Assembly: GCA_965217775.1 (NCBI GenBank)
Contig: CBDCJH010000002.1
Coordinates: 5,056,001-5,120,000 of the forward strand
DNA: 64,000 nt
Reading direction: 5' to 3'
Origin: Acidobacteriota bacterium
GTDB taxonomy: Bacteria > Acidobacteriota > UBA6911 > RPQK01 > JAJDTT01
Both the position numbers and the translations under genes were made by a program. This document shows, piece by piece, positions 32,184 through 64,000 of the stretch (position 1 is its first letter; the number at the start of each line of letters is the position of its first letter). The notes beneath the pieces are model-generated. The model was not told where the DNA came from, did no database searches, and worked only from the letters and a program-made list of their open reading frames with translations.

Positions 32184-34733
32184 TTATTCATGGCGCAACG
32201 CTTCCATGGGTTCCAGCCTGGTGATTCTATAGGCTGGAATCCAGCAAGCCAGCAGCGAGGCCACTACGATCACCAAGGCGGGGACCAGGAAAATCACGGG
32301 ACCGGACGGTTCCAACTCGGCAACGACGTTCCGAAGGATTCGAATCCCCGCCAGCGCCAGACCTGCCCCGATGAAAAGGCCGATAGCGACGACTACCAAG
32401 GCCCTTCTCAATATCAGCCATACTGTGTCGTAGCGTCTTGCGCCCATAGCCAGTCGAACCGAGATTTCTCGTGTGCGGCGAGCGACCGAATGGGAGAGGA
32501 CGCCGTAAAGTCCGACACATACCAGTATCAGCGCCAGAATGGCAAAGGCGGCTAACAGCAGGTTTAGCAACCGCCATTCGCCGATACGCGCCGCGATAGT
32601 CGCGGACAAGGACTGTGGTCCAAAGGTCGGGAGATCGGGGTCCAATTCGCGCACGGTTTGGCGCATGGAGGCCACGGTTGCGGTAATCCCTCCTGGTTGA
32701 GTTCGTGCCATGAGCGTAAAGTTTCCGACATATCCCTGAAGAATTGGGAAGTACACATGGGGAGAAGGGTTTTCACCGGGCATGCGAAAGTGGACCTCTC
32801 CGGCGACTCCGATCACCACCCATTTGTTCGATCCGTGTGAGACCTGCTTCCCTATGGGATCGGCATCGGGCCAGAATCGCTCGGCCAACGTCTGGCTGAC
32901 TATGATGACCGGCCGCGCGTCATGATCGTCTGTCCACTGAAAGTCGCGACCCCGGATCAAGGGAAGTCGAACGGTCTCGAAGTATCCGGGACAGATGGAA
33001 TTGACGTTAGCCATAACCGCATTGTCTTCATCTTTACGGATGGAACTTCGGACGCCGCTACTATCGGCAGGAACGAATTGCGCCAGACTTACGGAATTCA
33101 CTCCTGGAGCCGTCTCCGCGTGTCGTAGGAGTTGTCGCAGGAACAAGATTCCTTTGGTCTCGTTGTAACCCTGGTTGGCCACGTCAACCGATAATGTGAC
33201 CACGTTCGCGGGATCGAAGCCTGGATCCAGCGAAAGTCGATTCGCGAGCGAACGGAGGAACAGTCCCGCCACGACCAGCATTGTCAGCGACAATGCGACT
33301 TGCAGGGTGACCAGGCCATGACGCCAGCGTCCCGAACGTACGCGATTGTTCCACTCTGTCCCCTTCAGTGCCGGGAACAGATCAATTCGGCTGGCACGTA
33401 TCGCTGGAATCAAGCCGAAGAAAACGGCTGTCGCCGACGAGAGAGTCACAGTGAACAACAACATGCGGACATCCAGGAAACCGAGGCTCAGTCGAGAAAT
33501 GCTCAGGTAGCCAGCGGACCCATGTGGCAGCGGAATGGTACCCAGCAGGTCCAAGCACCAGAGGGCCACGAGAGTCGCGGCGACACCGCCGGCCAGAAAG
33601 AGCACGGTCGTCTCGATGAGGAGATAGTGGATCAGACGGTTACGGCTGGTTCCCACGGCCAAGCGGGTCGCCATCTCGAGCCTCCTGCTCCGCGCGCGCG
33701 AGAGGAGGAGGTTGGCGACGTTTGAGCACGCGATCACGAGAACGAATCCCGCGATCGCAGTCAGGAAGATCCAAACGTTCTGGAGCCGGGATCTCAGAGA
33801 CGGACGAACACGAGCAAAATGCCCCGGGGCCAATACGAGATTCTCCTCTTCCCACCTTCGGTTCAGGTGTTGTAGTTCGGATACGGGCCCAGCTAGTGTG
33901 GAGCGGGCGCCGTTCCAACTCATGTCCGGTTTGAGGCGTCCTACCAAGTTCAGCCAGTAGCTACGCGGATGCTCAAACCAATCCGCTGAGTCAAAAAGCC
34001 AACGCTTGGGCACAACCTGTGCTCGCATCATCAAGGGGACCCATACGTCTATTTGTCTCAGGGAAAGACCCTTGAAATGCTCCGGCAGGACTCCCACCAA
34101 GGTGAAGGGGCGGCCATTCAATCTTGCGGTCCTCCCCACCACGTCCGGATTCGATTGAAATTGATCGCGCCAAACCCGAGCGCTGATCATCGCCACCGGG
34201 TGGCGCCCAGGAACCTGCCCCTCCTCCGGAAGGAAGCCTCGACCGACGATGGGTTCAATGCCGAGGACATCCGTGTAGTTGGACGACGCCATTTCGCCCG
34301 CTAGCCGTTCCGTGAACCCATCGGCGCTCAGATGGGGCGTGAACCCGGCATAGGCAACCAGGCCGGAGAAAGCTTGGTTTGCTCGCCGGATTAGAAGATA
34401 TTCAGGGAAAGAAAACCCGCTTCCATACGAATCTTCGCTGGACCCGCGGTAGACAGCCGCGATCCGATGGGGATCTGCAACCGGGAGCGGCCGCAATATG
34501 GCAGCGTCGAACAATGTGTAGACAGCCGTATTCACCCCGATGCCGAGAGCCAGAGTCATGATGGCTACAATCGTGAAACCAGGATTCCTGGTCAGCGTCC
34601 GAAACGAGAGCCTGACGTCTCTGACGGTGTCCTCCAGGTAGAGAAGCAGACTTCGTCCTGGTTCCTTTCCTTGCAAAGGGTGATCTATGGGCGAGGTCGG
34701 TTGTGGTGGTCCATTCATGGCTTGGTCAGCCAA
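32184..34733 (-). CDS. ADOP-type duplicated MacB/FtsX ABC permease
   Basis: ALGIGVNTA, IACSNVANLLL, RRTREISVRLAMGA and EPMEALRHE; start 34733 or 34718. Confidence 0.92.
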   Translation of the reverse strand: MADQAMNGPPQPTSPIDHPLQGKEPGRSLLLYLEDTVRDVRLSFRTLTRNPGFTIVAIMTLALGIGVNTAVYTLFDAAILRPLPVADPHRIAAVYRGSSEDSYGSGFSFPEYLLIRRANQAFSGLVAYAGFTPHLSADGFTERLAGEMASSNYTDVLGIEPIVGRGFLPEEGQVPGRHPVAMISARVWRDQFQSNPDVVGRTARLNGRPFTLVGVLPEHFKGLSLRQIDVWVPLMMRAQVVPKRWLFDSADWFEHPRSYWLNLVGRLKPDMSWNGARSTLAGPVSELQHLNRRWEEENLVLAPGHFARVRPSLRSRLQNVWIFLTAIAGFVLVIACSNVANLLLSRARSRRLEMATRLAVGTSRNRLIHYLLIETTVLFLAGGVAATLVALWCLDLLGTIPLPHGSAGYLSISRLSLGFLDVRMLLFTVTLSSATAVFFGLIPAIRASRIDLFPALKGTEWNNRVRSGRWRHGLVTLQVALSLTMLVVAGLFLRSLANRLSLDPGFDPANVVTLSVDVANQGYNETKGILFLRQLLRHAETAPGVNSVSLAQFVPADSSGVRSSIRKDEDNAVMANVNSICPGYFETVRLPLIRGRDFQWTDDHDARPVIIVSQTLAERFWPDADPIGKQVSHGSNKWVVIGVAGEVHFRMPGENPSPHVYFPILQGYVGNFTLMARTQPGGITATVASMRQTVRELDPDLPTFGPQSLSATIAARIGEWRLLNLLLAAFAILALILVCVGLYGVLSHSVARRTREISVRLAMGARRYDTVWLILRRALVVVAIGLFIGAGLALAGIRILRNVVAELEPSGPVIFLVPALVIVVASLLACWIPAYRITRLEPMEALRHE

Positions 34734-51052: not shown

Positions 51053-54000
51053 CTGCGGCCGTCTCCGCATCCTTCCCGGAGAGAACCGCCGCGAGCCCGT
51101 CCCGAAACCGGGAAACCGACCCGGAGCCGAGATACGATGAGGCCCAGCGCCGAGCCCTAGACCTCTCCTCCCACATGGTCGTGTCCGCGGCGGCCGGATC
51201 CGGCAAGACTCGGGTTCTGGTGGGGCGCTACCTGCGGATCCTGGAAGGTTACGGACACCAGCCTCACCAGACCGTCGCCATCACCTTCACCGAGGAAGCG
51301 GCCTCCCAAATGGCCGCGCGCATCCGGGAAGGGGTCCTGGCCAGACTCTTTTCAGCTCCCTCCCCAGAGAAGAAGCGTCCCTGGGAAGAGGCGCTGGAGG
51401 CCTTGGGAGACGCTCCCATCACCACCCTGCACGGCTTCTGCCTGAGGATCCTCAGGGAACACGGCAGCCGGATCGGCCTCGATCCCGGCTTCGCAGTCCT
51501 GAACGGAGGGGATCAGCGCCTGCTGCTGGACCGGTGTCTCCGGGAGCTGCTCGATTCCTGGTCTCGCACCCGGCTTCCCGCGTTCGCGACGCTGCTCGGA
51601 TATCTGCCCTACCGGAGAATCGAAAGGGTCCTGACCGAGCTGGTCCAGAGACGGAATCACCTGACCGCTCGCTCGTCCCTTGACCAGGCTGAGATCCTGC
51701 GCCGCCTTTATCGGCGGGAAACGGCGCACTTCCTTTCGCAGTCGGATCTGTGGCGCCGGTTGCGGCGCCTCCTGGAGCGGGTGCCGAAACGGCTCTTGAT
51801 CCGGAACGATTCCTATGCCCGAAAATGCGTCCGGCAGCGAGACCTCTTCGCGATTCGCCTCAAGCTGGACGAGATGGAGTTCCTGGTTCGGTTCCAGGAA
51901 TCTCTGGGCCTGGTGGCTCGGCCTTCCAAACCCTGGAAGGACTGGGAACATCGGGCCGACCTGGTGAAGTGCTGGAAGGGTCTCAAAGAGGAATATGGCC
52001 GTTATCCGCTGCAGGTCTCCCGCCCGTCCGATGAATCCGGTTTCGACGGCGACGCTCACTTCGAGAAGGCGACGCTGGCCCTGGAGGAACTGGCCGGACT
52101 GGCCTTGGATTGCTATCGGTCCGAGAAGGGACAGGATTCGCTGCTGGATTTCGAAGATCTGCTGGCGCTGGCTCGTTCCTTGGTCCGTTTGCCGGAAGTT
52201 CGCAGGACACTGCGGAGCCGGCATCGATTTTTTCTGGTGGACGAATTTCAGGACACCAACCGCCTGCAGTGGGAAATCCTCAAGCCGTTGCTGGGTCCCG
52301 GCTCGAATTTCTTCGCCGTCGGCGACGACAAGCAGTCTATCTACCGCTTCCGGGATGCGGACGTCTCGGTATTTCGAGCGGTTCGGAAGTGGGTCCGGAT
52401 GCGGGGACGCGTCGTCGAGCTGCGCCGGAACTACCGCTCCCATTCCAGCTTGGTGCGTTTCAGCAACCGGGTCTTCCGGAACCTGATGCAACCGGGGTTG
52501 GACTATGAGGCGGTTCATCAAGAGATGACTCCCGTCCGGAACGAGTGCGCCATCGCGGATCCGGGAGTCCGGGGATTGCTCTACGAAAAGCTCCCGCAGG
52601 GGTACGACTCCGAGGCCGAAGTGGCGGCGGAGGCGGCCAAGGGCCTGCTGTCGGCAGGGTTCCAGGCCCATGAGATCGGGGTCCTGCTCCGGAATCGCAA
52701 CCGGCTTCAGGAGTTCGAGAACGCGTTCTGCCGCTGGGGTTTGCCCTTTGCCGCCCGGGGGGGCAATCGGCTTCACGATCAACCCGAGATCGTGGACCTG
52801 GCGAATCTACTCGCCTTTCTGGATGATCCCCGAAGGGACCTGGAATTGCTGGGGGTGCTCCGGAGTCCCCTGTTCAGTTTCTCGGACGAGGATCTGCTGC
52901 TCCTTTCATTGCAGGAGGGGTGCGGGATCTGGGATAAGCTTCAGTCTGCGGAATCTCCCGCGGGCGCTTTGCCCGGGCATTGGGTCTTCGCGCGGGAATC
53001 GTTGGAAGCGTGGCTCCAGGCGCTCTATCTGGGATCGGCGGCCATCCTGGCCCGTGCGACCGCGGAGACCGGTTACGATGAGGTCATGGCAGCCGGCGGC
53101 CGGGGAGATCTGGCCCGGACCAGTATCCACCGGCTGCTGGAACTGGCCCGGAGATTCGAGATCGACCATGGACCCTCCCGGCGTCCCTTTCTCCGTTACC
53201 TGGAGGGGCTCCGCCGGCTCGGAGCCCACGAGGGGGGATTCGCGGAAGGCGGCACGGACCGGATTCGGGTTCACACCATCCACGGGGCCAAGGGTCTGCA
53301 ATATCCGGCGGTCATTCTTCCCGATCTGGGTGCGCCGCTCCTGGCCGGGATGAACGATCCTTTCTTCGGCCAGAGGTTGGGGCGGGAAAAGGGCCGGTAT
53401 TGTTTCGGCCTCTCGATCCGAAATCCGCTGCGGAATTATGAGGAATACCGGCATCCGCAGTTCGAGATGTTGCGGCGGCTGGATCGGTATCGCCAGACGG
53501 CCGAGGAGAAACGGCTCCTCTACGTGGCCCTGACCCGGGCCCGTGAGAGATTGGTGCTGATCGGGAAGAAGTCGGGACGGCCATCCTACGCCCGCTGGTT
53601 GCAGGAAGCGGGAGCAGAGACCTCCATGGTCCCGTTGACCCTCCGGCCTCTCGAACGCTCCCGCAAGTCGACCGGGCGGGAGGCAGAAGAGAACGAGCTC
53701 TCTCCCGCCGCCTCTTCCCAAGTTCGTAGCGGAGATTCGACCTTGACGGGTCGGAGCCATCATCTCCCGTCGGCCGCCGGCAGTTGGAGCAAAACCACCT
53801 GGACACCGACCGAGATCGTCTCCTACTATCGATGCCCCCGGAGCTTCTTCCATTCCCGGGTGGAGGGACGGACGGAGGCGCCGGCCACGGGTTGGCGCGC
53901 GAGCCCGTCGGCGCTGGTGGGCTCGGCCGTGCACGAGTTGCTGGAGAATCAGGGTGCGTTGGGAAGTGAAGCGGAGGTGGAACGTTTCCGGGACCGGTGG

Positions 54001-54561
54001 CGGGCGAGGCTTGGCCCCGTCTATTCGGAGGTGGAGATTCGCCGCATGAGCCGCCGCATCGAGGAGAGCCTCGAGGGTGTCCGGAAGTGCCGCCTCGCGG
54101 AGCGTCTCGCCTCCGCCCGGAGGGTCTTCAGCGAAAAGCGATTCCATCTGCTGGAGCAGGGGCGCCTGGTGACGGGGATCATCGACAAGCTCTTTCAGGA
54201 GCGGAACGGCCGCTGGGTGGTCGTGGATTTCAAGACCTCACCTCTGATTGAACCTGAAGACGGCCAGGGGATCGTCGAGAGAGGCTACCGGCTCCAGGTC
54301 CAACTCTACCTGTGGGCCGTGTCCCGAGTGTTGGAGACCATGAATCTGGAGGGGCACCTGTTGTTCACGGAGGCCGGTACGCTCCGGCCGGTGCCCTTCG
54401 ACGCCGGCGTCGCGGGCCGATGCCGGGGTCTGATCGGCGGTCTTCCCAGTACGCCGGATCTGGGCCAATTTCCCCGGACCCAGGTCTCCGAAACGTGTTC
54501 CGGATGTGGATTCAAGACCGGACGGGTCTGCCCGGGAGCGGCCGAGCCCCATCCGGATTGA
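51049..54561 (+). CDS. addA: AddA/UvrD-family helicase-nuclease
   Basis: AAAGSGKT, DEFQDTN, VGDDKQSIYRFR, TIHGAKGLQY, RLLYVALTRA and GIID...DFKT. Confidence 0.9.
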   Translation: MTAAVSASFPERTAASPSRNRETDPEPRYDEAQRRALDLSSHMVVSAAAGSGKTRVLVGRYLRILEGYGHQPHQTVAITFTEEAASQMAARIREGVLARLFSAPSPEKKRPWEEALEALGDAPITTLHGFCLRILREHGSRIGLDPGFAVLNGGDQRLLLDRCLRELLDSWSRTRLPAFATLLGYLPYRRIERVLTELVQRRNHLTARSSLDQAEILRRLYRRETAHFLSQSDLWRRLRRLLERVPKRLLIRNDSYARKCVRQRDLFAIRLKLDEMEFLVRFQESLGLVARPSKPWKDWEHRADLVKCWKGLKEEYGRYPLQVSRPSDESGFDGDAHFEKATLALEELAGLALDCYRSEKGQDSLLDFEDLLALARSLVRLPEVRRTLRSRHRFFLVDEFQDTNRLQWEILKPLLGPGSNFFAVGDDKQSIYRFRDADVSVFRAVRKWVRMRGRVVELRRNYRSHSSLVRFSNRVFRNLMQPGLDYEAVHQEMTPVRNECAIADPGVRGLLYEKLPQGYDSEAEVAAEAAKGLLSAGFQAHEIGVLLRNRNRLQEFENAFCRWGLPFAARGGNRLHDQPEIVDLANLLAFLDDPRRDLELLGVLRSPLFSFSDEDLLLLSLQEGCGIWDKLQSAESPAGALPGHWVFARESLEAWLQALYLGSAAILARATAETGYDEVMAAGGRGDLARTSIHRLLELARRFEIDHGPSRRPFLRYLEGLRRLGAHEGGFAEGGTDRIRVHTIHGAKGLQYPAVILPDLGAPLLAGMNDPFFGQRLGREKGRYCFGLSIRNPLRNYEEYRHPQFEMLRRLDRYRQTAEEKRLLYVALTRARERLVLIGKKSGRPSYARWLQEAGAETSMVPLTLRPLERSRKSTGREAEENELSPAASSQVRSGDSTLTGRSHHLPSAAGSWSKTTWTPTEIVSYYRCPRSFFHSRVEGRTEAPATGWRASPSALVGSAVHELLENQGALGSEAEVERFRDRWRARLGPVYSEVEIRRMSRRIEESLEGVRKCRLAERLASARRVFSEKRFHLLEQGRLVTGIIDKLFQERNGRWVVVDFKTSPLIEPEDGQGIVERGYRLQVQLYLWAVSRVLETMNLEGHLLFTEAGTLRPVPFDAGVAGRCRGLIGGLPSTPDLGQFPRTQVSETCSGCGFKTGRVCPGAAEPHPD

Positions 54562-54574
54562 AGAGCGAGCAGTG

Positions 54575-56242
54575 ATGCAACGGGAACAGTTGGAGGTGGA
54601 CGTTCTCTTCGTCGGTGCGGGACCGGCTTGCTTGAGTGCCGCGTTCCACCTGTCGCGCCTGGTGAGCCGGCATGACCGTGAAGTGGCGGAAGGGGTCCGG
54701 CCGGGTTCGCCCCTGGGTGAGCAGCTCCTGCTGGTCGTGGAGAAGGGAAAGGAGATCGGATCCCATGCCCTGAGCGGCGCCATCGTGGACCCCCGGGCCT
54801 TTCGGAATCTGCTTCAGGATTTCCCCGGTGCGGAACCGCCGCTGGACGCTCTGGTGCGGAAAGAGGACGTCCTGTTCCTTACCGAAAAGTGGCATTTTCG
54901 GCTTCCCATGATCCCGCCGCCGTTGCACAACGAAGGCAACCACGTGGCCTCGCTGGGAAAGCTGGTGAAATGGCTGGCCGGCCTCTGCCAGGACCATGGG
55001 GTCGAGGTCTACCCCGAATTCCCGGCGGTCAAGCTCCTCCTGGAGGGGAATCGGGTGGTGGGCGCCCGGATGGGGGACCGGGGGCGGGACGCCAAGGGGC
55101 GGCCCAGGTCGCACTTCGAGCCCGGAACCGACGTACTGGCCAAAATCACCGTCTTGGGGGAAGGCCCCCGAGGCACGTTGACCCGCCAAGCGGAAGAACG
55201 ACTTGGACTGGACCGCGACAGCGGCCCGCAACTCTATTCGCTGGGTGTGAAGGAAGTCTGGCGGGTCCCGGGAATCGAGCCGGGACGGGTCTACCACACC
55301 TTCGGCTACCCGACTGGAACCCGGGAGTTCGGGGGAGGTTTCATCTACACCCTGACGCAGGAGCAGGTCCATGTGGGGTTCGTCGTGGGCCTGGACTCGC
55401 GAGATCCGCGGGAAGATGCCCACCGGCTGTTGCAGGAATACAAGCAACACCCCTTCGTGAGGCGCCTCCTGGAAGGAGGCCGGGTGGTCTCCTACGGCGC
55501 CAAGGCCATTCCGGAGGGGGGCTACCACTCGATGCCGCGGCTCTACGGCGACGGACTGCTCCTGGTGGGAGATTCGGCCGGATTCCTCAACCCCGCCCGG
55601 TTGAAGGGGATCCACTTGGCCATCGAATCGGGAATGATGGCGGCCGAGGCAGCTTTCGAGGCCCTGGTGGCGCGCGATTGTTCCGCCGACCGGTTGAAGC
55701 GGTACGACGAGTTGTTCCAAGCGAGTGAGGCCAGGAAGGAACTCCACTCCACCCGCAACTTCCGCCAGTCCTTCCAGCGGGGCTTCTGGACCGGCCTCCT
55801 CTACAACGGCTTCCAGACGCTGACCGGATTGGGTTGGGGAGGCGTCTGGAACACGGTGCCGGGCCATGAGCGTATGGTCAAAATGGACGGTTCCGGAGCA
55901 ACCGGAGAGGCGCCGTTTCCCGGGGACGGCGGCCTCACCTTCGACAAGCTCTCCGACGTCTACCTCTCGGACACGGCTCACGAGGAGGATCAGCCCAGCC
56001 ACCTCAAGATCTCGGACCTGGAGATCTGTCGCGACAAGTGCCGGCGGGAATACGGCAACCCTTGCCAGCATTTCTGTCCGGCGGGCGTCTACGAGATGGT
56101 GCAGGATGGGGACGGGCCCAGGCTCCAGGTCAACTTCACCAATTGTGTCCACTGCAAGACCTGCGACATCCTGGACCCCTATCAGGTGATCCTGTGGACT
56201 CCCCCCGAAGGGGGCGGCGGACCGGACTACAAGAACATGTGA
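54575..56242 (+). CDS. Electron transfer flavoprotein-quinone oxidoreductase
   Basis: VGAGPA, HALSGA, IPEGG, KGIHLA and C-terminal CPAGVY...NCVHCKTCDI. Confidence 0.93.
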   Translation: MQREQLEVDVLFVGAGPACLSAAFHLSRLVSRHDREVAEGVRPGSPLGEQLLLVVEKGKEIGSHALSGAIVDPRAFRNLLQDFPGAEPPLDALVRKEDVLFLTEKWHFRLPMIPPPLHNEGNHVASLGKLVKWLAGLCQDHGVEVYPEFPAVKLLLEGNRVVGARMGDRGRDAKGRPRSHFEPGTDVLAKITVLGEGPRGTLTRQAEERLGLDRDSGPQLYSLGVKEVWRVPGIEPGRVYHTFGYPTGTREFGGGFIYTLTQEQVHVGFVVGLDSRDPREDAHRLLQEYKQHPFVRRLLEGGRVVSYGAKAIPEGGYHSMPRLYGDGLLLVGDSAGFLNPARLKGIHLAIESGMMAAEAAFEALVARDCSADRLKRYDELFQASEARKELHSTRNFRQSFQRGFWTGLLYNGFQTLTGLGWGGVWNTVPGHERMVKMDGSGATGEAPFPGDGGLTFDKLSDVYLSDTAHEEDQPSHLKISDLEICRDKCRREYGNPCQHFCPAGVYEMVQDGDGPRLQVNFTNCVHCKTCDILDPYQVILWTPPEGGGGPDYKNM

Positions 56243-56297
56243 GTCGGCGACCGGCCGGCAGTGGCCGCCGTCAGGGAAACGCGACCAAAGGGGTCGT

Positions 56298-56399
56298 CCT
56301 ACGTCTGTTTCCTCACCCCTCTCTTCAGTCGAAGCACGGCTTCCACGCCCAGCCAAAGCGACAGCGCCAAGATGACTCCTCCCACGATCAGCAGCAGGT
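56298..56399 (-). repeat. Displaced duplicate of the cstA 3' end (direct repeat with 59472-59573)
   Basis: Encodes LLLIVGGVILALSLWLGVEAVLRLKRGVRKQT*; 7 substitutions relative to the cstA terminus. Confidence 0.92.
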
Positions 56400-56469
56400 A
56401 CGAGAAAGGGGACCGCGAGAAAGGGGACAGTCTATTTTTCCGGGAGAAAGGGGACAGTCTATTTTTCCC

Positions 56470-56586
56470 GGACGAGACTTGGTCACCAAGGATGACCTGG
56501 AGCGTGCGGTCGCACCGTTGGCCACGCGCGCCAGCCTCTACCGTGCCCTCTGGCTCCAGACCGGAGCTATTGTTGCCGCCGTTGCG
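56470..56586 (+). pseudogene. Fragment of a DUF1640/CCDC90-like coiled-coil gene
   Basis: DLVTKDDLERAVAPLATRASLYRALWLQTGAIVAAVA; no start codon; bounded by repeats. Confidence 0.5.
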
Positions 56587-56649
56587 AAAAGGGACAGTCC
56601 GGAAAGGGACAGTCTGTTTTCCGGGACGCTCGAAAGGGACCGTGAAGCG

Positions 56650-56758
56650 CGGACAAGGCGCGATGAGGGAGCATACCGGGAGTATGTGACCGAGTCGCAA
56701 CGCAGTCCGCCGGGATGCAGGGACGGTCGAATGCCGTGACGACTTTTGCCACGGGCTG
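56650..56758. mobile_element. MITE family A right half (second copy at 57243-57351)
   Basis: CGGACAAGGCGCGAT...GCATACCGGGAGTATGT...GACTTTTGCCACGGGCTG, followed by GTAG. Confidence 0.8.
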
Positions 56759-57013
56759 GTAGACATCGCCTCAGCGCGCAATGGTAAGGATCACAACGAT
56801 GGATTCGTCTGCCTCGATGGCGTAGCAGATACGCCAGTCGCCCACACGGATGCGCCACACAGCACTGACACCTCCAAGCTTTCGGGTGCCAGGTGGGCAC
56901 AAGTCGCCCGCCAATGCCTCAATCGAGGTGGACAATCGCCGAAGGGTTGCTCGCTCAACGATACTGCGGAGGTCTTTTTCTGCCCCTCTCGAAAGTATGA
57001 TCCGGCGGGTCAA
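56759..57013 (-). pseudogene. relE: RelE/ParE-family toxin, premature stop (copy 1)
   Basis: AEKDL, RKLGG and WRIRVGDWRICY; reads ...IAR*GDVY, so the TGA removes the conserved C-terminal Tyr. Confidence 0.8.
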
Positions 57014-57351
57014 AGATCCAGGTCACTTTTGAGATCATCGAAACTAAAGCAGCAGGCGACCAAGAAGGGGACCGCGACCAAGAAGGGGACAGTCTATTGT
57101 TCCGTGTGTTTCGGCCACGCGCGCCAGCCTCTACCGTGCCCTCTGGCTCCAGACCGGAGCTATTGTTGCCGCCGTTGCGAAAAGGGACAGTCCGGAAAGG
57201 GACAGTCTGTTTTCCGGGACGCTCGAAAGGGACCGTGAAGCGCGGACAAGGCGCGATGAGGGAGCATACCGGGAGTATGTGACCGAGTCGCAACGCAGTC
57301 CGCCGGGATGCAGGGACGGTCGAATGCCGTGACGACTTTTGCCACGGGCTG

Positions 57352-57606
57352 GTAGACATCGCCTCAGCGCGCAATGGTAAGGATCACAACGATGGATTCG
57401 TCTGCCTCGATGGCGTAGCAGATACGCCAGTCGCCCACACGGATGCGCCACACAGCACTGACACCTCCAAGCTTTCGGGTGCCAGGTGGGCACAAGTCGC
57501 CCGCCAATGCCTCAATCGAGTTGGACAATCGCCGAAGGGTTGCTCGCTCAACGATACTGCGGAGGTCTTTTTCTGCCCCTCTCGAAAGTATGATCCGGCG
57601 GGTCAA
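57352..57606 (-). pseudogene. relE: RelE/ParE-family toxin, premature stop (copy 2)
   Basis: Duplicate of copy 1 with the same TGA. Confidence 0.8.
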
Positions 57607-57906
57607 AGATCCAGGTCACTTTTGAGATCATCGAAACTAAAGCAGCAGGCGACCAAGAAGGGGACAGTCTATTGTTCCGTGTGTTTCCGGAGGCATAGAA
57701 CAGGCCACAAGAGTGCCGGCTCCTTTGGCCGCCAAGGCGACTCAGGTGGTCACTTGGTCGAGTTTCCGCGGTTGCTTCCTGAAACACGAGGCTTGCCGGG
57801 TTTCCTGAGTTTCCTTCGCCGTTCTCAGTTCTGAATCGTTGGTGTCATAAAGGGTTGCGAAACGACTCCCACGCGAGTCCGAGTCCGATTAACCGAACCG
57901 AGGATC

Positions 57907-58848
57907 GTGGCCATGGCCCGAGCCGCACGACACAAGAGCACAGAAGCCGCCTTCTATCACCTCACCAATCGAGTCGCCGGCAAATCCAATTGGTTCCCCT
58001 TTAAAAACCACCAAGCCGGTCGCAAACTCCTGGACATGATGTTGTTCTACGTCAATGCCTACCGGTGTCGTTTGGCCGCTTTCCAGATCATGGGCAATCA
58101 CTTCCACTTCGTCATCCATTTTGAGAAACTCCGCCCCTTGTCCCGCGAGGAGTTGGAGGAGAGCGCCCACAAGCTTTATGGACGACAGGCAGAGAAGAAA
58201 ACCGCCGATTGGACCGTCGCCCAGTGGGAGGCTTTCAACCAGCGTCTCTTTGACGTGTCGAAACTAATGCAGAACGTGGACGGGCAGTATGCCCTGTGGT
58301 TCAACCGCGAGTTTGAACGGCGAGGCCATCTTTGGGGTGATCGCTTCAAGAACCCGGAACTCTTGGGAAGCGAAGCCGTCCAGGACGCCATCCTCTACGT
58401 GGAACTCAATGCCGTCCGGGCCGGACTGGTCAAAAGGCCCGAGCAATGGAAATTCGGCTCGGCCCGCTGGAGACTCACCGGCGAGGATCAAGACCTGATT
58501 CCACTGGAGGAACTGTTCCCCTCGGATCCCGGAACCGAGGTGTACAGCAGTTACCAGGCTCGCTTGTACTATCGAGGAGCCGTCCCCACCCGGGAGAACC
58601 AGGCCGCGATCCCCCGGTGGATCCTCCATCAGGAGCAGCGACGTGGATTTACCCGTGCCGGAGCCTTTCGCCGTCGATTGCGATTTCTGACGGACGGATT
58701 GGCCGTCGGGCCGGCAGAGAAGGTGGCGCAGTTGCTGGAGACGTATCGGCAACAAGGTCGATATCGACGTCGCCGACACCCCATCCCCCAACTGGGCGGA
58801 GTGCTGTATTCTCTGCGGGAGCAGCGCTCGAACGCCTTCGTCACGTAG
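57907..58848 (+). CDS. REP-associated tyrosine transposase (RAYT, HUH Y1 family)
   Basis: FYHLTNR, IMGNHFH (HUH), RRGHLWGDRF and ILYVELNAVRAGLV...WKFGS (catalytic Tyr); C-terminal extension. Confidence 0.9.
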   Translation: MAMARAARHKSTEAAFYHLTNRVAGKSNWFPFKNHQAGRKLLDMMLFYVNAYRCRLAAFQIMGNHFHFVIHFEKLRPLSREELEESAHKLYGRQAEKKTADWTVAQWEAFNQRLFDVSKLMQNVDGQYALWFNREFERRGHLWGDRFKNPELLGSEAVQDAILYVELNAVRAGLVKRPEQWKFGSARWRLTGEDQDLIPLEELFPSDPGTEVYSSYQARLYYRGAVPTRENQAAIPRWILHQEQRRGFTRAGAFRRRLRFLTDGLAVGPAEKVAQLLETYRQQGRYRRRRHPIPQLGGVLYSLREQRSNAFVT

Positions 58849-58970
58849 AATCTTCTGATCCCCGACCCGCCAGACCTCCAACCGTCGATTCTGCCACCGC
58901 GGCACCGAACGACCCAGATCACGAGAACCACCCAATAGACTCTGGTCTTTCCCCATATTTTCTGACGGTT

Positions 58971-59184
58971 CAGGAGAACAGGGAGAAGGTTTGAACGAGG
59001 ATCGTGACGAGGCGGTCCAATCCCGGCAGCCCGGCCACGTCCCGGGTAATCAAGACTGTCCCTTTCCGTCCGGCATGCAGGAGAACAGGGAGAAGGTTTG
59101 AACGAGGATCGTGACGAGGCGGTCCAATCCCGGCAGCCCGGCCACGTCCCGGGTAATCAAGACTGTCCCTTTCCGTCCGGCATG
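58971..59184. repeat. Exact tandem duplication, 107-bp period
   Basis: CAGGAGAACAGGG...GACTGTCCCTTTCCGTCCGGCATG at 58971-59077 and 59078-59184. Confidence 0.9.
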
Positions 59185-59299
59185 GTCGCGCGAGAACAAC
59201 TCATTTGGCTGGAGAATAACTTCCACCGACGCGATTTCCTCATCGGAGGCGGACTGGCTGTACGTGGTCGCGCGCCGCGCGCCGGGAATCGAGACGGTC

Positions 59300-59437
59300 C
59301 CTTTCCGTCTGCGGGAGTATCCCCGCGCGCTGCAGGTGACACGGCTCAACAGACAGGGGAGTCTGTCCGTGGGCCAGCGCCGTTACTTTGTGTGTGAGGC
59401 GTTGGATCGGGAATGGGTGGGCAAGACTAACCTGTAA
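59300..59437 (+). pseudogene. IS481-like transposase C-terminal fragment
   Basis: EYPRALQVTRLNRQGSLSVGQRRYFVCEALDREWVG resembles the IS481 C-terminus. Confidence 0.6.
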
Positions 59438-59472
59438 AGGATGTCATGACACCAAACACACAAGGGTCGCCC

Positions 59473-61128
59473 CTACGTCTGTTTCCTCACGCCTCTCTTC
59501 AGTCGAAGCACGGCTTCGACGCCCAGCCAGAGTGAAAGCGCCAGGATGATTCCTCCCACGATCAGCAGCAGGTGCGCCCCGGAGGTCCAGAAATCGCGCA
59601 TCTTGAAGCACATGGCCACCAGTGTCGTGATGAGCATGAAAAGCATCGGAACGGCCGTGTACCAGAAGGGCCGCCTGCGGTGCATCAGGTACAGCGTCAC
59701 CGTCAGCAGGGTGAGTCCCGCCAGGACCTGATTGGTGGTCCCGAACAACTGCCAGAGCGCCAGGCCGGCGGCCTTCCCGTCCACTCGATAGAAGGCGAAG
59801 AATCCGATGGTGGCGACTGCCCCGAGAGACGCGACGTAACGGTTCGAGAGGATCCGGACTCCCAGGGTTTCGCCGATCTCGCTGATATTGAAGCGGAGCA
59901 GCCGGGTGGCCGAGTCCAGGGTGGTGAGGGCGAACGAGATGGCGATGAGGGCGACGAAGGCCTTGGCCAGTTCCAGGGGAATGCCCAGTTGGCTCATGAA
60001 CAGGGCGGCTCCGTCGATGAACGCTTTCATGTTCGGACCCAGGCCCAGGGCCATGTCCCAGCTCTGGTAGTGGGCCATCCAGAGGTCGCGCGTGAGGAAA
60101 CCGGCGGTGCAGGCCAGCACGGAGACGAGTCCCAGCAGCGATTCTCCGATCATGCCCCCGTAGCCGATGAAGGTGGCGTCGGTTTCCCGGTTGATCTGCT
60201 TTGCCGTGGTCCCCGAGGAGACGAGTCCGTGGAAGCCCGAGACGGCTCCGCAGGCGATGACGATGAAGACGAAGGGGAAGATGGGGGGAGCCCCGGGCGG
60301 ATGAGTCTGAACGGCCGGAGCCGCGAACTCGGGACCGAGCCAGAAGAACCCGGCGTAGATCAGGAACAGTCCCAGGTACAGAAGCAGTGAGTTGATGTAG
60401 TCCCTGGGTTGCAGCAGGGACCAGACCGGCAACACGGAAGCGGCCAGGCTGTAAGCCAGCAGGATCACGCTCCACTGTCCCAGGCTCAGATCGGGGCTGG
60501 GAAGCTCGACACCCATCCAGACACTCAGGAGGGTCACGGCGAAGGCCACGGCCGTGGCCTTCTTGATGGACGCGTTCCGCTTGTACACGAGCCAGCCCAC
60601 GACCAGAGCGACCACCATGAGGGTTCCGCTGGGGTAGACGGCCTGAGGGTTGTATTGGGTGGTCAGGAGCGTGGCCGAAACGTGGACGAAAACCCCCATG
60701 GCCAAGCCGATGAGGAAGAAGATGATGATGTGGAAAAGGCTCTTGGCCCGGGGACCCACGATGTCCTCGGCCACCTTTCCCACCGACATGCCCTTGGCGC
60801 GCATGGAGATCACCAAGGCGCTGAAGTCGTGGACGGCGCCGATGAACAGCGTTCCCAGGACCACCCAGAGCATGGCGGGCACCCATCCCCAAATCACCGC
60901 GATGGCGGGGCCCAACATGGGGGACAGGCCGGCGATGGAGGCATAATGATGTCCGAACAGCACCCATCGGTTCGCCGGTACGTAGTCCACTCCGTCGTTC
61001 AGTTCATGGGCGGGTGTGGTGGCGTTCGGATCCAGTTGAAAGATCCGGCGGCCCAGATACTTGCCGTAGAACTTGAAGCCGATCAGATAAAGGCAGAAGC
61101 AAAGCAGGGCGGCGAGGATCGGGCTCAT
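59473..61128 (-). CDS. cstA: Carbon starvation protein A family transporter
   Basis: TPAHELNDGVDYVP, GHHYASIAG, LLQPRDYIN, CGAVSGFH, TTLDSATRL and LFGTTNQ; start MSPIL at 61128. Confidence 0.95.
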   Translation of the reverse strand: MSPILAALLCFCLYLIGFKFYGKYLGRRIFQLDPNATTPAHELNDGVDYVPANRWVLFGHHYASIAGLSPMLGPAIAVIWGWVPAMLWVVLGTLFIGAVHDFSALVISMRAKGMSVGKVAEDIVGPRAKSLFHIIIFFLIGLAMGVFVHVSATLLTTQYNPQAVYPSGTLMVVALVVGWLVYKRNASIKKATAVAFAVTLLSVWMGVELPSPDLSLGQWSVILLAYSLAASVLPVWSLLQPRDYINSLLLYLGLFLIYAGFFWLGPEFAAPAVQTHPPGAPPIFPFVFIVIACGAVSGFHGLVSSGTTAKQINRETDATFIGYGGMIGESLLGLVSVLACTAGFLTRDLWMAHYQSWDMALGLGPNMKAFIDGAALFMSQLGIPLELAKAFVALIAISFALTTLDSATRLLRFNISEIGETLGVRILSNRYVASLGAVATIGFFAFYRVDGKAAGLALWQLFGTTNQVLAGLTLLTVTLYLMHRRRPFWYTAVPMLFMLITTLVAMCFKMRDFWTSGAHLLLIVGGIILALSLWLGVEAVLRLKRGVRKQT

Positions 61129-61148
61129 GGAAACGGTCTCCTGTGGGA

Positions 61149-64000
61149 TCAATACCAGCGATCGACGCGGCGGGTGTTCCACTCCTGCAGGTAGCGCTGG
61201 TGGGCCGGCGTGTCCGGATAACGCTCGTTCGGGGCGTACGGGAAACGGCTCATGCCGTGAAAAGGCAGCGGTCCTACGGTGTCCGGGGAGGCCGAATGGA
61301 GGTCCATGTCCTTGCCGAATCCATCCACATAGACCAGATAATCCCTCACCCATCCTTCGGGGGGAGCGGGAATTCGGTCCAGATCGAAGAAGGCCTCGAT
61401 CTCATCGCCGGCACGGGTGGTGACGAACATGTCGTCCCGTTTCAGCAGCAGCGGACTCACCTCGCCGAACCGGGTGTAGTTGCCGATGTGCGCCTTCCAG
61501 GGAGCCGTGGGAAGGATCCGGCTGCGGTCATAGGCCAGGAGGGGTTTCCCGATCCCGGCCGGATAGCCCAGGTGGTGAAGATCGGCTCGTTGGGAACTGA
61601 GCCGGAAGGTCCTGAAGTCGCGGCGGGTTGGACTCGCATCCACCAGAATTCGGTCCCAATGAATCCGCATGTTGGTGCGAATCCGGACCTTCCGGCTGTC
61701 GCTCGGGAACTTGCCCGAGAGATCGACGGTCATGGGCTTGGGAAGGCCCGCCGGAAAGCCCATGCGTTCGATGACGGTCACCCAATCGCCGCTCGAATCC
61801 TGAACCTGGAGGACCGGGGGACTCAGGCTCAGACCGGCCTGAGACGCCGCCAGGTTGCTGGTGCTGTCCGCATAGTCGATCCAGGCGTCGAGCAGGAGGC
61901 GCGTGTTCTCTCCCGAAACCGGGCCGAGATCCAGGATCAGCTCATGCGGTTCGGCATAGCCCTTGAAGGGCAGGTTTCGGAACAAGGCGGGGTATTTGCC
62001 GTCGAGTTTGCTGAGGGCGGACAGCAGATCTTGGCCCTTGCCGTCGGTGGCCGAAAGCGGCGGCCGCGGATCGGAGAAGGTCAAGAGTCGAAAGTTGGCG
62101 TAGGGAGGTCCCGGAAGCAGTTTCTCGTCCGGGTAGATCTCGTAGTCGTCCGGATGGTCCACCACCACCAGCTCGAGTTTGTCGAACAGGATCAACTCTT
62201 CCAACTGGTTGTTCAACGTGATCGCCAACCGCCCCTCTTTCAGCGCCACTTGGCCCCGGTTCAGCTTCACGTATTCGTCGGTGTCGGGATAGTTGAAGGT
62301 ACCCGGCGAGAGCAGGTAGCCGTAGGCGCTCCCTCCCAGGAAATCGGTCTGAAAGACGTAGCGCTCTCCGTTCCAGACGTAGAGGATGGGGCAACTCGTC
62401 CCCTTGCGGTCCAGCTCCTGGATCTCCAGAGCCTGGTTCACCTCCTGATTGAGTTCCGACTGCAGGACCCCGCCGGGCCACAATAGCCGGACGATGTCGA
62501 TCTCCGTTCGGCGGCCCAATCCGAAATGCAGGGTGGCTGCATTCTGGCTCAGGAAGCCGTAGCCTCCGCGCACCTCCTCTTTCTGGAGGAGGCGGCCGCT
62601 ACGAATCTCGACCTTGGTTCCGATGGCGCTCTGGTTGCTGTTGGTCCCGCGGGCGGTCACGGAGACCCAATTGTTGCGGTTGCCTCCCTGGTTCCGCAGC
62701 AACAGGGGACGATCTCCATTCACGTTGGCGACCAGGTCCAGGTCCCCATCCCCGTCGTAGTCCGCGGCGCTCACGCCGCGCACCGGGAGACCGCGGAACT
62801 CGTCCAGGCGCGCTTGCCGGCTCACGTCCTGGAAACGGCCCCGGTGATTGGCCAAGAGGTGAAAATTGCGTCGCGGCTCCTCCCAGCTCGAGTCGAACAG
62901 GGGAGCCGCCACGATCAGAAGGTCACGGTCGCCGTCGTTGTCGAAGTCCAGAAGATGAGCCGTATGCGCATGGCCCGGCGCTTCCCAGTCCCGGGGCATC
63001 CAGTCTTGGCGGCGAGCGTACCGGAGGTTCCTGGCCTGCTGGGTCCGGAGGCTGAAGTCGGATCCGGTCAGTGTGGGGAGTACCAAGTCCAGGAAGCCCC
63101 GGTGCGCCAAATCTCCGATTCCGACGCCGACGCCCTCACCGTCGCCGGAGACTCCGGCGGCTTCGGCCAGGTCCACGAAGGTTCCGTCCCGCTGATTGCT
63201 GAAGAGCTGGTTCGGCGCGCCCCGATTGACGAAATAGAAATCGATGTCCCTTCGGTTGTCGAAGTCCGTGCAGACGGAAGACCAGGTCTGCCGGTGCTCC
63301 CCGGCCAGGCCGGAGGATTCGCTGACGTCGGTGAAGGTCCCGTCGGAGTTGTTGCGAAAAAGGGAGTTGATCGCTCCCGGAAAATCCTGGGGAAAACGGG
63401 TCCCGGCCGCGACCCTTTCGGGCCGGCCCGTGAGGTTGGTGACCAGGAGGTCCAGGTCCCCGTCGTGGTCGTAGTCGACGAACGCTCCTCCGCTCCCCCA
63501 GGCGGGGTCGCCGACTCCCGCCTGCTCCGTGACTTCCACAAAGCGCCCGTTCCCTTCATTCCTGTAGAGGACGTTGGGTCCGTAGTTGATGAGGTAGAGG
63601 TCCAGGTCCCGGTCGTTGTCGTAGTCTCCCCAGATGCCGTGCATGGTCCGGCCCTTCCGGTCGAGCCCCGATTCCCCGGTCGTCTCCTGAAAGGTGCCGT
63701 CTCCTTGATTTCGGAAGAGTGAACTCCGGCTTCCTCCGGGCCCGGCGTTGGACAGGAACAGGTCCACATGACCATCTCCATCGTAATCGCCAAAGGAGCT
63801 TCCCGATCCGACCCAAGGGACCAGATGGTCCTCCAACTCCCGGACCGAGGACACCTCCGGATCGACCGTCCCGGGGCCCGCATGTCGAAAGCTCAGGCCC
63901 GCGGCGTCACCGTCCTCTTGGAATCGAACCGCAAACTCTTCCCGGTCCTGAATGGAAGGCTGTGGCAGGTAGTCGTCAAGATCCTCCAGCACCAGGGCGT
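61149..64000 (-). CDS. CRTAC1/ASPIC-UnbV family FG-GAP repeat protein (5' end outside window)
   Basis: Repeated DYDxDGDLDL motifs, ASPIC-like LHFGLG...WPGG, and a C-terminal SCP...W domain; frame is open to the window edge. Confidence 0.9.
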   Translation of the reverse strand, partial: ALVLEDLDDYLPQPSIQDREEFAVRFQEDGDAAGLSFRHAGPGTVDPEVSSVRELEDHLVPWVGSGSSFGDYDGDGHVDLFLSNAGPGGSRSSLFRNQGDGTFQETTGESGLDRKGRTMHGIWGDYDNDRDLDLYLINYGPNVLYRNEGNGRFVEVTEQAGVGDPAWGSGGAFVDYDHDGDLDLLVTNLTGRPERVAAGTRFPQDFPGAINSLFRNNSDGTFTDVSESSGLAGEHRQTWSSVCTDFDNRRDIDFYFVNRGAPNQLFSNQRDGTFVDLAEAAGVSGDGEGVGVGIGDLAHRGFLDLVLPTLTGSDFSLRTQQARNLRYARRQDWMPRDWEAPGHAHTAHLLDFDNDGDRDLLIVAAPLFDSSWEEPRRNFHLLANHRGRFQDVSRQARLDEFRGLPVRGVSAADYDGDGDLDLVANVNGDRPLLLRNQGGNRNNWVSVTARGTNSNQSAIGTKVEIRSGRLLQKEEVRGGYGFLSQNAATLHFGLGRRTEIDIVRLLWPGGVLQSELNQEVNQALEIQELDRKGTSCPILYVWNGERYVFQTDFLGGSAYGYLLSPGTFNYPDTDEYVKLNRGQVALKEGRLAITLNNQLEELILFDKLELVVVDHPDDYEIYPDEKLLPGPPYANFRLLTFSDPRPPLSATDGKGQDLLSALSKLDGKYPALFRNLPFKGYAEPHELILDLGPVSGENTRLLLDAWIDYADSTSNLAASQAGLSLSPPVLQVQDSSGDWVTVIERMGFPAGLPKPMTVDLSGKFPSDSRKVRIRTNMRIHWDRILVDASPTRRDFRTFRLSSQRADLHHLGYPAGIGKPLLAYDRSRILPTAPWKAHIGNYTRFGEVSPLLLKRDDMFVTTRAGDEIEAFFDLDRIPAPPEGWVRDYLVYVDGFGKDMDLHSASPDTVGPLPFHGMSRFPYAPNERYPDTPAHQRYLQEWNTRRVDRWY

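Follow-up and report, generated by a model that had tools for sequence, protein, structure and literature searches.

Among described systems, the nearest to the locus analyzed here is the TIRtron, named for its TIR-associated tyrosine transposase (TIRYT) (Di Nocera, De Gregorio and Rocco 2013, PMC3733652). In the portion of that account available to us, the majority type of TIRYT repeats carries the motif GGGGWSAS, and a separate Acidobacteria group of TIRYTs is described. Proteins of TnpA-Y1 subclass 2.3 have a median length of 325 aa and occur in several copies per genome with moderate identity, a profile that the present family resembles (Quentin, Siguier, Chandler and Fichant 2018, PMC6006769; consulted in part). 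The present locus, found in a 64-kb window (the whole stretch of DNA that was analyzed), is a TIRtron, with a RAYT-like Y1 HUH gene of the TIRYT type between terminal inverted repeats (TIRs) that have a GGGGWSAS-type core, GRAAGGGGACAGTCT. Its gene family occupies about 11 such loci, old and syntenic, within a genus of uncultured Acidobacteriota. For RAYT-like proteins no cellular role is agreed upon, and we know of no experimental work on the TIRYT branch.

Assignment of the protein rests on domain, motif and fold. A Pfam profile scan matched Y1_Tnp at 30.3 bits (cut-off, 23), and an alignment of 12 diverse homologues (A1) showed the HUH motif as NHFH, or NH[FY]H across the homologues, with H63 and H65 invariant, together with an invariant Tyr162 inside LYVELNA. 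The predicted model (mean pLDDT, 68) found E. coli TnpA-REP (4er8_A) as its top fold match (E, 2.4e-3; probability, 1.00), followed by ISDra2 and IS608 TnpA, while neither the protein nor the 12-sequence profile had any sequence match among solved structures at E values up to 1. The NCBIfam model REP_Tyr_transpos scored 50.4 bits, under its curated threshold of 80. The genome encodes 11 full-length RAYT paralogs (82 to 92% amino acid identity), and 8 other genomes of the genus contain 3 to 11 RAYT matches each.

Table 1. Features of the locus from left to right, with positions in the 64-kb window
Feature	Position	Strand	Details
ETF-ubiquinone oxidoreductase gene, left border	54506..56242	+	Pfam Fer4_ETF_QO 138 bits, ETFQO_UQ-bd 96 bits
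S-left, left copy of duplicated target: truncated duplicate of cstA 3' end plus a few intergenic bases	56280..56402	-	Abuts first repeat
TIR cluster 1, three to four units	56401..56470	+	Repeat matches
Internal fragment of small gene ("DUF1640-like" in the first-pass annotation)	56473..56585	+	113 bp; 94% identical to G007:C11
TIR cluster 2, three units	56585..56645	+	Repeat matches
MITE piece, right two-thirds (~113 nt) of a ~165-bp MITE, left side cut by cluster 2	56650..56765	+	blastn, alignment to full-length copies
ParE/RelE-type toxin gene, 80 aa	56771..57013	-	Pfam ParE_toxin 38.5 bits, cut-off 23
Upstream-gene tail, last ~15 codons, cut by cluster 3	57014..57055	-	Frame ...SFDDLKSDLDL ends at toxin start
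TIR cluster 3 (two units) plus first ~20 nt of conserved left end	57056..57112	+	Ends at tandem-duplication junction
Second copy of tandem duplication	57113..57687	+	Part of small-gene fragment, cluster 2', MITE piece, toxin gene, putative antitoxin tail, one TIR
Toxin gene, second copy	57364..57606	-	Inside 57113..57687
Left end of conserved unit: proximal TIR (core 57658) plus region upstream of RAYT	57649..57906	+	Paralog homology starts at proximal TIR
RAYT-like tyrosine (Y1 HUH) transposase gene, TIRYT type	57913..58848	+	311 aa; 313 counted from GTG at 57907
Right end of conserved unit, proximal TIR inverted (59042-59073)	58849..59077	+	Paralog homology stops at proximal TIR
Second copy of 107-bp tandem duplication, second inverted TIR (59149-59180)	59078..59184	+	Identical to 58971-59077
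Fragment common to this locus and G007, same site	59185..59281	+	Side-by-side reading; no other copy in genome
Third inverted TIR	59282..59307	-	Repeat matches
3' fragment of repeated element ("IS481-like" in the first-pass annotation)	59308..59454	+	End abuts S-right; end present in G007 too
S-right, right copy of duplicated target: true cstA 3' end	59455..59576	-	Alignment with S-left
cstA (carbon starvation protein A), right border	59473..61353	-	Pfam CstA 455 bits; single match in genome

The unit is embedded in pieces of diverse origin (Table 1). The two copies of the cstA tail (56298-56402 and 59472-59576) are 92% identical, with 7 codons differing and one amino acid change. The small gene is intact in the relative G007, with no repeats close by, and the sole relative of its fragment within the genome lies at C2:5429547 (84% identical). 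The MITE piece has 262 blastn matches in the genome, and the piece at 59308-59456 is 79% identical to a repeated element with six genome copies. The labels DUF1640 and IS481 were not borne out, the Pfam scan giving no family on these fragments. The gene tail beside the toxin is probably that of an antitoxin, judging from its position.

The repeats greatly exceed chance expectation in the window. AAGGGGACMG has 7 matches (0.53 expected), six on the plus strand at 56406-57667 and a distant seventh at 33356. AAGGGACMG has 11 (1.64 expected), comprising six on the plus strand at 56589-57235, three on the minus strand at 59056, 59163 and 59295 and two elsewhere (48470 and 52126). The sequence GGGGACAG, which fits GGGGWSAS, is that of the 7 window copies and of the left proximal repeat of most paralogs; the remaining copies read AGGGACAG, one base shorter. 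Copies at the locus are 64 to 100% alike, start-to-start spacings are irregular (15, 27, 113, 155, 462 and 480 bp), and the inverted-repeat pairs I1-I14 include 57193-57208 with 59053-59068 (16 nt, 100% complementary). The unit CCGGGAGAAAGGGGACAGTCTATTTTTCCCGG could form a hairpin with an 11-bp stem (z, −2.1), neither proximal repeat folds better than shuffled sequence (z, +0.7 to +1.6), and the consensus has no GT[AG]G foot. A canonical hairpin REP was ruled out, with better-than-shuffle folding in some copies only.

The first-pass annotation correctly described the polarity of the repeats around the RAYT gene (12 plus-strand copies on the left and 3 minus-strand copies on the right) but read it as that of a polarised array, whereas it is simply that of terminal inverted repeats. 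A “>” repeat lies upstream of the RAYT gene at all 11 loci of this genome and a “<” repeat within 1050-1600 downstream at 10 of them; both are present at 31 of 40 loci in six relatives, and repeat orientation is unchanged whichever direction the RAYT gene points in the relatives compared. Likewise, the C-terminal extension and non-GTAG repeats are no novelty and belong to the published TIRYT/TIRtron type. That the repeats belong to the RAYT gene was borne out: homology among the 11 paralogous loci is bounded by repeats at both ends, and the repeats are enriched beside the genes. Genome-wide scatter without such enrichment had been named as grounds for abandoning the earlier proposal, and the scatter is real (162 strict cores in 67 clusters, versus 19 in a reversed-genome control) but the lack of enrichment is not, as 34 of the 162 cores are no more than 500 bp from one of the 11 RAYT genes. 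With a looser pattern, 56 of 468 matches are near RAYT genes (1.6 expected under uniform spread). Local multiplication of the short end repeats gives rise to the clusters, and copies occur also at >100 other places in the genome.

Both tandem duplications that the first-pass annotation had reported as containing repeats are genuine. A single mismatch and one 18-bp gap set the copy at 56520-57112 (593 bp) apart from that at 57113-57687 (575 bp), and the copies at 58971-59077 and 59078-59184 (107 bp each) are identical. Each duplication has a junction 12 to 18 nt from a repeat core, with microhomology of at most 1 nt. The MITE, the putative antitoxin gene and the small gene are each truncated at a repeat cluster, and joints between unrelated fragments coincide with repeats here, as previously noted, and in other arrays also. 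At the same site in G007, RAYT fragments lie between repeats. Contigs of two public studies, which attest presence only, join 57640 to 59195 via 293 different letters, representing an allele that lacks the RAYT unit and places the toxin side beside the right-hand fragment.

Taking together the observed family membership, repeat architecture, copy numbers, synteny, duplications and truncations, we favor, at a probability of roughly 0.65, a reading in which the repeats are recombination-prone ends of a TIRtron and the mosaic is a recombination scar rather than a store of acquired DNA. The TIRYT enzyme would bind and nick single-stranded DNA at the end repeats, and the resulting breaks or stalls may be repaired by replication restart or by joining at the wrong place. 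Faulty repair of this kind could generate tandem duplications with one junction beside a repeat, deletions that truncate neighbors and occasional patch insertions. At a site where other mobile DNA had already settled, namely a toxin-antitoxin pair accompanied by a MITE plus a repeated element resembling an IS, such events would over time produce a mosaic with its joints at repeats. The public contigs attest presence and no cleavage, circle or joining event. A lagging-strand insertion bias was unsupported: solo repeats have no orientation bias by replichore, and since a strand bias is expected under an IS608-type lagging-strand model, this counts against the favored reading, as do the hairpin potential confined to some repeat copies and the microhomology of at most 1 nt at the duplication junctions.

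Three other explanations deserve consideration. The TIR-RAYT-TIR unit could be an autonomous transposon, the mosaic arising from nested insertions, one-ended events and adjacent deletions and the long duplications being target-site duplications. In keeping with this, the site between the ETF-ubiquinone oxidoreductase gene and cstA is empty in 3 of 8 relatives (in G004, G001 and G006 the two genes are 29 to 313 bp apart) and occupied in 4, with the RAYT gene in either orientation. Direct duplications of target DNA (48 to 240 bp) flank about a third of the loci; the geometry upstream-[S]-TIR..RAYT..TIR-[S]-downstream, S being the duplicated segment, occurs at 6 of the 11 loci in this genome and at 12 of 40 in relatives; and segment boundaries differ among G000, G003 and G005 at one site. 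In addition, the nearest relative of a copy lies within its own genome for 47 of the 55. However, 11 synteny groups that span genomes take in 51 of the 55 loci in the genus, and the loci are therefore old. The only pair at 100% identity, two G002 paralogs, is identical over the reading frame alone (flanks and ends, 31 to 76%), and because identity stops at the reading-frame ends, gene conversion rather than transposition of a unit is indicated. One flanking duplication is older than the split of G000, G002 and G003. To our knowledge, Y1 HUH transposases generate no target duplications, as is established for IS200/IS605, which also counts against transposition; we consider this explanation unlikely. 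Nor do we know of long target duplications as a product of any Y1 HUH enzyme, and the nicking and repair model explains those of 48 to 240 bp only loosely. A recent origin of the duplicated tails was rejected for one synteny group, that to which dating applies (the R4/L062 segments are unrelated, and those of R7/L050 overlap by just 41 nt), as the left copies of three species group together and so do the right copies. Continued translation or selection of the duplicated tails was rejected as well, as in 2 of 3 genomes the left copy of the methyltransferase tail no longer holds the frame.

The first-pass annotation had instead proposed a dedicated capture platform, in which the RAYT enzyme uses the repeats as recombination sites and gathers fragments or cassettes of selfish DNA in an integron-like manner. 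Beyond the joints at repeats, this finds favor in the content of the same site, which varies between species, and in arrays that lack a RAYT gene, where co-oriented repeats separate or bracket intact HigBA, VapBC, MazEF and AbiE modules. A strict repeat lies within 300 bp of 6 of 40 PIN-toxin genes, versus 0.72 expected at random positions, a null that does not represent intergenic or accessory DNA. The other 34 PIN genes have none, however, and relatives carry the HigBA module without any repeat. At the RAYT loci themselves, spacers are present in 16 of 51, and in the other 35 none reaches about 120 bp; of 23 spacers, 3 consist of RAYT-unit fragments, and all Pfam matches in 18 scanned spacers are to ordinary chromosomal genes or gene tails, with toxin, MITE and IS scraps at this locus only. 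Such contents sit poorly with a dedicated acquisition platform, and the many spacers that are truncated at both ends are not functional cassettes. Irregular spacing speaks against capture too, and the loci, being old and syntenic, are not actively acquiring DNA. A capture platform is accordingly improbable, and the claim of a new acquisition system does not hold; nothing points to directed acquisition, and the proposed stitching of fragments by the RAYT enzyme may persist as a side effect of nicking at repeats. The direct-orientation repeats around intact toxin-antitoxin modules are more orderly than random scarring, and two of the arrays without a RAYT gene lie at loci rearranged between species. 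The idea of an assembly artefact behind the array and its tandem duplications, raised earlier for the array, draws on repeats and duplications being typical trouble spots and on the lack of a single public contig covering the whole stretch. Against it, the genome was assembled in 2 contigs; independent public runs yielded short contigs that exactly cover 56230-56502, 57018-57142 (95 and 30 letters on the two sides of the 57112/57113 junction, one short of the bridging rule) and 59105-59224; the 593- and 575-bp copies are distinguishable; and closed genomes of relatives have the same architecture. An artefact is very improbable.

If nicking of the end repeats by TIRYTs were frequent enough, these loci might act as an engine of local genome remodeling, an HUH-driven, nonadaptive counterpart of cassette arrays. 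We regard this extension of the recombination-scar interpretation as speculative, with perhaps a small chance of being correct. It would account for the long flanking duplications, the tandem duplications and the short pieces copied from other loci; nicking and repeat spread would build the co-oriented arrays around toxin-antitoxin modules; and a first concrete cellular consequence would be available for the TIRYT branch of RAYTs. The genus is a good comparative system, with about 11 old loci per genome, several closed genomes and natural “before” and “after” conditions, among them sites with and without the unit, the gene in both orientations and repeat clusters that vary in size. The recurrent long flanking duplications and the duplication junctions a few bases from repeats are testable and are absent from the TIRYT literature, as far as the part covered here extends.

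Helitrons and IS91/ISCR elements have HUH enzymes of the Y2 or rolling-circle type and move as units. Like them, the present locus combines an HUH enzyme and end sequences with adjacent foreign gene fragments, but here the loci are static and the fragments few. Integron cassette arrays (attC and IntI) share co-oriented short repeats between small modules, including toxin-antitoxin pairs; at this locus there are no regular cassettes, many of the pieces are cut short, the enzyme gene sits between inverted repeats, and no IntI-type integrase lies between the border genes, where the Y1 protein is the sole enzyme among 9 frames scanned. Irregular spacing (15 to 480 bp) and unequal repeats distinguish the locus from a CRISPR array. 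In contrast to IS200/IS605, with a TnpA of ~150 aa, a Y...Q motif and near-identical whole elements at nonsyntenic sites, the protein has 311 aa and YVELNA, the identity of the closest pair ends with the reading frame, and 51 of 55 loci are syntenic.

REPtrons of E. coli and Pseudomonas, in which a RAYT or TnpA-REP is associated with REP, BIME or REPIN sequences (Nunvar 2010; Bertels and Rainey 2011; Bertels 2017, PMC5581495), resemble the locus in having a vertically inherited Y1 gene between inverted copies of a dispersed short repeat that forms clusters, and 4er8 is the best structural match of the RAYT protein. They differ (RAYT groups 2 and 3) in their GT[AG]G foot and in copy number, about one per genome versus 11 here; hairpin potential is inconsistent in this family, and its REP_Tyr_transpos score is below the cut-off. 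The protein motifs match TnpA-Y1 subclass 2.1/2.3, a likeness of motifs and not of tree placement. In the part of PMC6006769 used here (with its Table 1), these subclasses have HUH as NH[YF]H (NHFH here), a Y motif YIELNP/YVDLNP that resembles YVELNA except for the last residue (A, not P), a long conserved C-terminal tail and no canonical REP, the last two features being shared; subclass 2.3 is reported there from Chromatiales and Alteromonadales, whereas our locus is from Acidobacteriota.

Differences from the TIRtron account, so far as the available part of PMC3733652 extends, are the 11 paralogous loci per genome at syntenic sites across the genus and gene conversion confined to the reading frame; the same part makes no mention of long flanking duplications or of repeat clusters at mosaic joints. 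The likenesses concern the element itself: a RAYT-like Y1 HUH protein longer than classical RAYTs, terminal inverted repeats at fixed distance with a GGGGWSAS-type core and no GTAG hairpins, and further repeat copies elsewhere, whether single, dimeric or grouped. By repeat motif, protein motifs and fold, the locus belongs to the TIRtron/TIRYT class, a known but little-studied kind.

The repeats that surround the RAYT-like gene, a Y1 HUH tyrosine-transposase gene, are the ends of a multicopy unit of ~1.4 kb. The 6.43-Mb genome of the window (two contigs) contains 11 full-length paralogs of the gene with 82 to 92% protein identity; a repeat in the left-hand orientation (“>”) lies 120 to 290 bp upstream of the start in 11/11 of them and one in the right-hand orientation (“<”) 1050 to 1600 bp from the start in 10/11. 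When the flanks of paralogous loci are aligned, similarity starts at the left repeat and stops at the right repeat, and 31 of 40 loci from six relatives are likewise repeat bracketed. At locus R2 of the window genome, the first 21 and last few codons of a RAYT gene lie outside the repeats of the locus itself. Genome-wide, there are 162 occurrences of the strict core AAGG+ACAGTC, in 67 clusters, versus 19 in a reversed, non-complemented genome control, and 34 of the 162 are ≤500 bp from the 11 RAYT-like genes. With a looser pattern, the raw hits number 468 (358 once overlaps were merged) versus 120 in the control.

Within the window, AAGGGGACMG has 7 matches versus 0.53 expected and AAGGGACMG 11 versus 1.64 expected. 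The first-pass annotation had described repeats facing one way on the left and inverted on the right, and the count bears this out (12 copies on the plus strand at 56406-57667 and 3 on the minus strand at 59056-59303). The two tandem duplications that it described are also real: the copies of one are 593 and 575 bp, with one mismatch and one 18-bp gap between them, and the two 107-bp copies of the other are identical. Each has one junction 12 to 18 nt from a repeat core. The gene has one orientation at the cstA site of the window genome (G000) and the relatives G002 and G003 and the opposite orientation in G005 and G007, and the left-hand repeats are “>” and the right-hand ones “<” whichever way it points; their polarity is thus that of terminal inverted repeats (TIRs).

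Features of the cstA site and of arrays elsewhere in the window genome (unprefixed coordinates count along the window)
Feature	Coordinates	Strand	Remark
ETF-ubiquinone oxidoreductase gene	54506-56242	+	left border
CstA gene	59473-61353	-	right border, convergent with the ETF-ubiquinone oxidoreductase gene
MITE piece	56650-56765		
MITE piece	57243-57358		
RAYT-less arrays, G000	C2:163723-165506, C2:2858776-2859739, C2:6169479-6170346, C1:122733-129939		intact HigBA, VapBC, MazEF, AbiE bracketed

Within the genus, the gap between the two border genes is 29, 51, and 313 bp in three relatives and 1.6 to 3.2 kb in four others and the window, where a RAYT-like gene always lies within it. At this site in G007, two RAYT fragments lie between repeats. 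At the far left end of the window array is a 105-bp copy (92% identity) of the 3' end of cstA, a gene with one match only in the genome. Other pieces are cut short at repeats: the MITE lacks its left third, a putative antitoxin gene retains ~15 codons, and a small gene is present only as 113 bp of its interior. The intact G007 relative of this small gene has no repeats nearby. In contigs of two public sequencing runs (X10 and X11, from two studies), position 57640 is joined to 59195 via 293 other letters; there is thus an allele that has no RAYT unit and in which the toxin side borders the right-hand fragment. The joint suggests an earlier arrangement in which the toxin module adjoined the IS-like element, with the RAYT unit, or the form it has today, entering between them later. 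An open frame at 59111-59437 (+), without a library match in a Pfam scan, spans a fragment (59185-59281), a repeat (59282-59307), and the 3' fragment of the IS-like element; a single transposase gene with an internal deletion may have left the two fragments as its ends. Upstream of the ETF-ubiquinone oxidoreductase gene, a 1,242-aa open frame (50833-54561) gives, by eye, the impression of a UvrD/AddA-type helicase-nuclease.

It had been proposed that the protein stitches fragments of mobile genes into a local array, in which case spacers between repeats should match mobile DNA. They do not follow that pattern: 35 of 51 RAYT loci consist of the gene and repeat clusters only, and the remaining 16 hold 23 spacers (~120 bp or more between repeats) in all, 3 of them pieces of the RAYT unit. 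For the 18 spacers that could be mapped to loci of the set other than R0 and R2, a Pfam scan of 98 out of 159 open frames found ordinary genes (enolase superfamily, methyltransferase, trypsin-like peptidase, cytochrome c, and GMC oxidoreductase) and gene tails (C-terminal ends of an Na+/H+ antiporter and an outer-membrane barrel). Among these loci, toxin, MITE, and IS-like scraps are found at the window locus only. The association between repeats and DNA joints is real, but a dedicated capture function is unsupported, and none of the spacer, truncation, or allele data resembles ordered acquisition.

A recurrent geometry at these loci is upstream-[S]-TIR...RAYT...TIR-[S]-downstream, where S is a direct duplicate of adjacent DNA. 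It is present at 6/11 loci in the window genome (50 to 187 bp, 88 to 95% identity) and at 12/40 loci of relatives (48 to 240 bp, 78 to 97%); at the cstA site, S in G003 (~90 bp) and G005 (~150 bp) has boundaries unlike those in the window. S mostly takes in a gene's 3' end, and one copy thereby leaves the gene whole. Five S pairs read in the gene frame have 55 codon differences but only 17 amino-acid differences, a synonymous bias. In one synteny group, left copies cluster together across three species, as do right copies, which makes the duplication older than the split of these species. In left copies from two of these species the frame is no longer intact, and they are therefore not retained as coding sequence. 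Y1 HUH enzymes have no known association with target duplication. At C2:1201277-1211779 (locus L164 of the window genome), three RAYT paralogs, two of them mutually inverted, share a 10-kb stretch with four direct copies of a methyltransferase gene's 3' end, and every truncated copy stops at a “>” repeat.

Arrays of co-oriented repeats without a RAYT gene occur at other genomic sites. In six of these (145 of 146 frames scanned), repeats separate VapBC, HigBA, MazEF, and AbiE modules; among the four tabulated arrays, the bracketed genes also include one for a Tn5-like transposase that has a DruA domain. Strict repeats lie within 300 bp of 6 of 40 PIN-toxin genes versus 0.72 expected at random positions, a generous null, as repeats persist only between genes. 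The HigBA module of relatives lacks repeats, which favors arrival of the repeats at preexisting modules. In G003 (locus L155, 3667-4795), a repeat-bearing VapBC module has at its flank a ~200-bp duplicate of the neighboring TonB-receptor gene's 3' end; the long duplication can thus also surround a repeat-bounded segment that lacks a RAYT gene. A separate abundant element is a ~165-bp MITE with ends CAGTCCGTGGTGAAAGTC and GACTTTTGCCACGGGCTG and apparent 4-bp flanking duplications. Its 19-nt core has 188 exact copies in the genome, the window piece has 262 blastn matches there, and the element is also found across the genus.

In a tree of 55 RAYT copies, the nearest relative is in the same genome for 47; G007 is represented once and cannot count among such pairs. 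Transposition as the source of these clades is ruled out by two G002 loci, L024 (the cstA site) and L052, which are 100% identical in the reading frame only (flanks and ends, 31 to 76%). Their identity, which ends with the reading frame, indicates gene conversion limited to the coding part, which accounts for the genome-specific clades of the tree. Flanking DNA places 51 of 55 loci in 11 groups, each with at least two genomes; as judged from these comparisons, the RAYT loci are old and vertically kept, with reading frames homogenized within genomes.

We postulate that the RAYT-like protein binds and nicks the repeats and that breaks or stalled forks there may restart in the wrong place. A backward jump would produce tandem duplications, and also the S-unit-S geometry if it included an excursion into the unit; a forward jump would truncate neighbors, and copying from other places would add patches. 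The cumulative GC skew of contig C2 has its maximum at ~1.69 Mb and its minimum, likely the replication origin, at ~5.0 Mb, just beside the window (5.056 to 5.120 Mb; locus at 5.112 to 5.115 Mb). Provided that the minimum marks the origin, the plus strand is leading at the locus, and in that direction each of the duplication junctions comes after a repeat; this is compatible with misrestart but no test of it. Counting against this mechanism are the lack of replichore bias among solo repeats genome-wide, the inconsistent hairpin potential of the repeats, and microhomology of 1 nt at most at the duplication junctions.

The window protein matches Pfam Y1_Tnp (30.3 bits) and scores 50.4 with the NCBIfam REP-associated tyrosine transposase model, under the cut-off of 80. 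Sequence searches of solved structures gave no match, and the best match of an AlphaFold model (mean pLDDT, 68) is Escherichia coli TnpA-REP (4er8_A; E = 2.4e-3; probability, 1.00), followed by the ISDra2 and IS608 transposases. The wider family comprises 319 protein clusters of ~311 to 313 residues, some named RayT by their sources. In an alignment of 12 diverse members, invariant positions are those of the HUH motif (NH[FY]H), the LYVELNA tyrosine, and a large part of the C-terminal half. Relatives from a public collection of genomes bear the title uncultured Acidobacteriota, and the gene has matches in 28 of 41 genomes, a count that includes the unpublished G016.

The combination of non-GTAG repeats and a C-terminal extension, pointed out in the first-pass annotation, is a type already described. 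Di Nocera et al. (2013, PMC3733652) define TIRYTs and TIRtrons as RAYT-like genes lying between terminal inverted repeats, many of which share GGGGWSAS; the repeats occur singly, as dimers, or in groups, and one sharply defined group is from Acidobacteria. Quentin et al. (2018, PMC6006769) describe a subclass 2.1 with NH[YF]H, YIELNP, a C-terminal tail, and no REP and a subclass 2.3 of ~325 aa with multiple copies per genome. Both the window repeat, GGGGACAG, and the protein fit the TIRYT class, and the element is a member of this known kind and new to it. In contrast to the rule of about one RAYT per genome reported by Bertels et al. (2017, PMC5581495), the window genome has 11 copies, which is therefore unusual.
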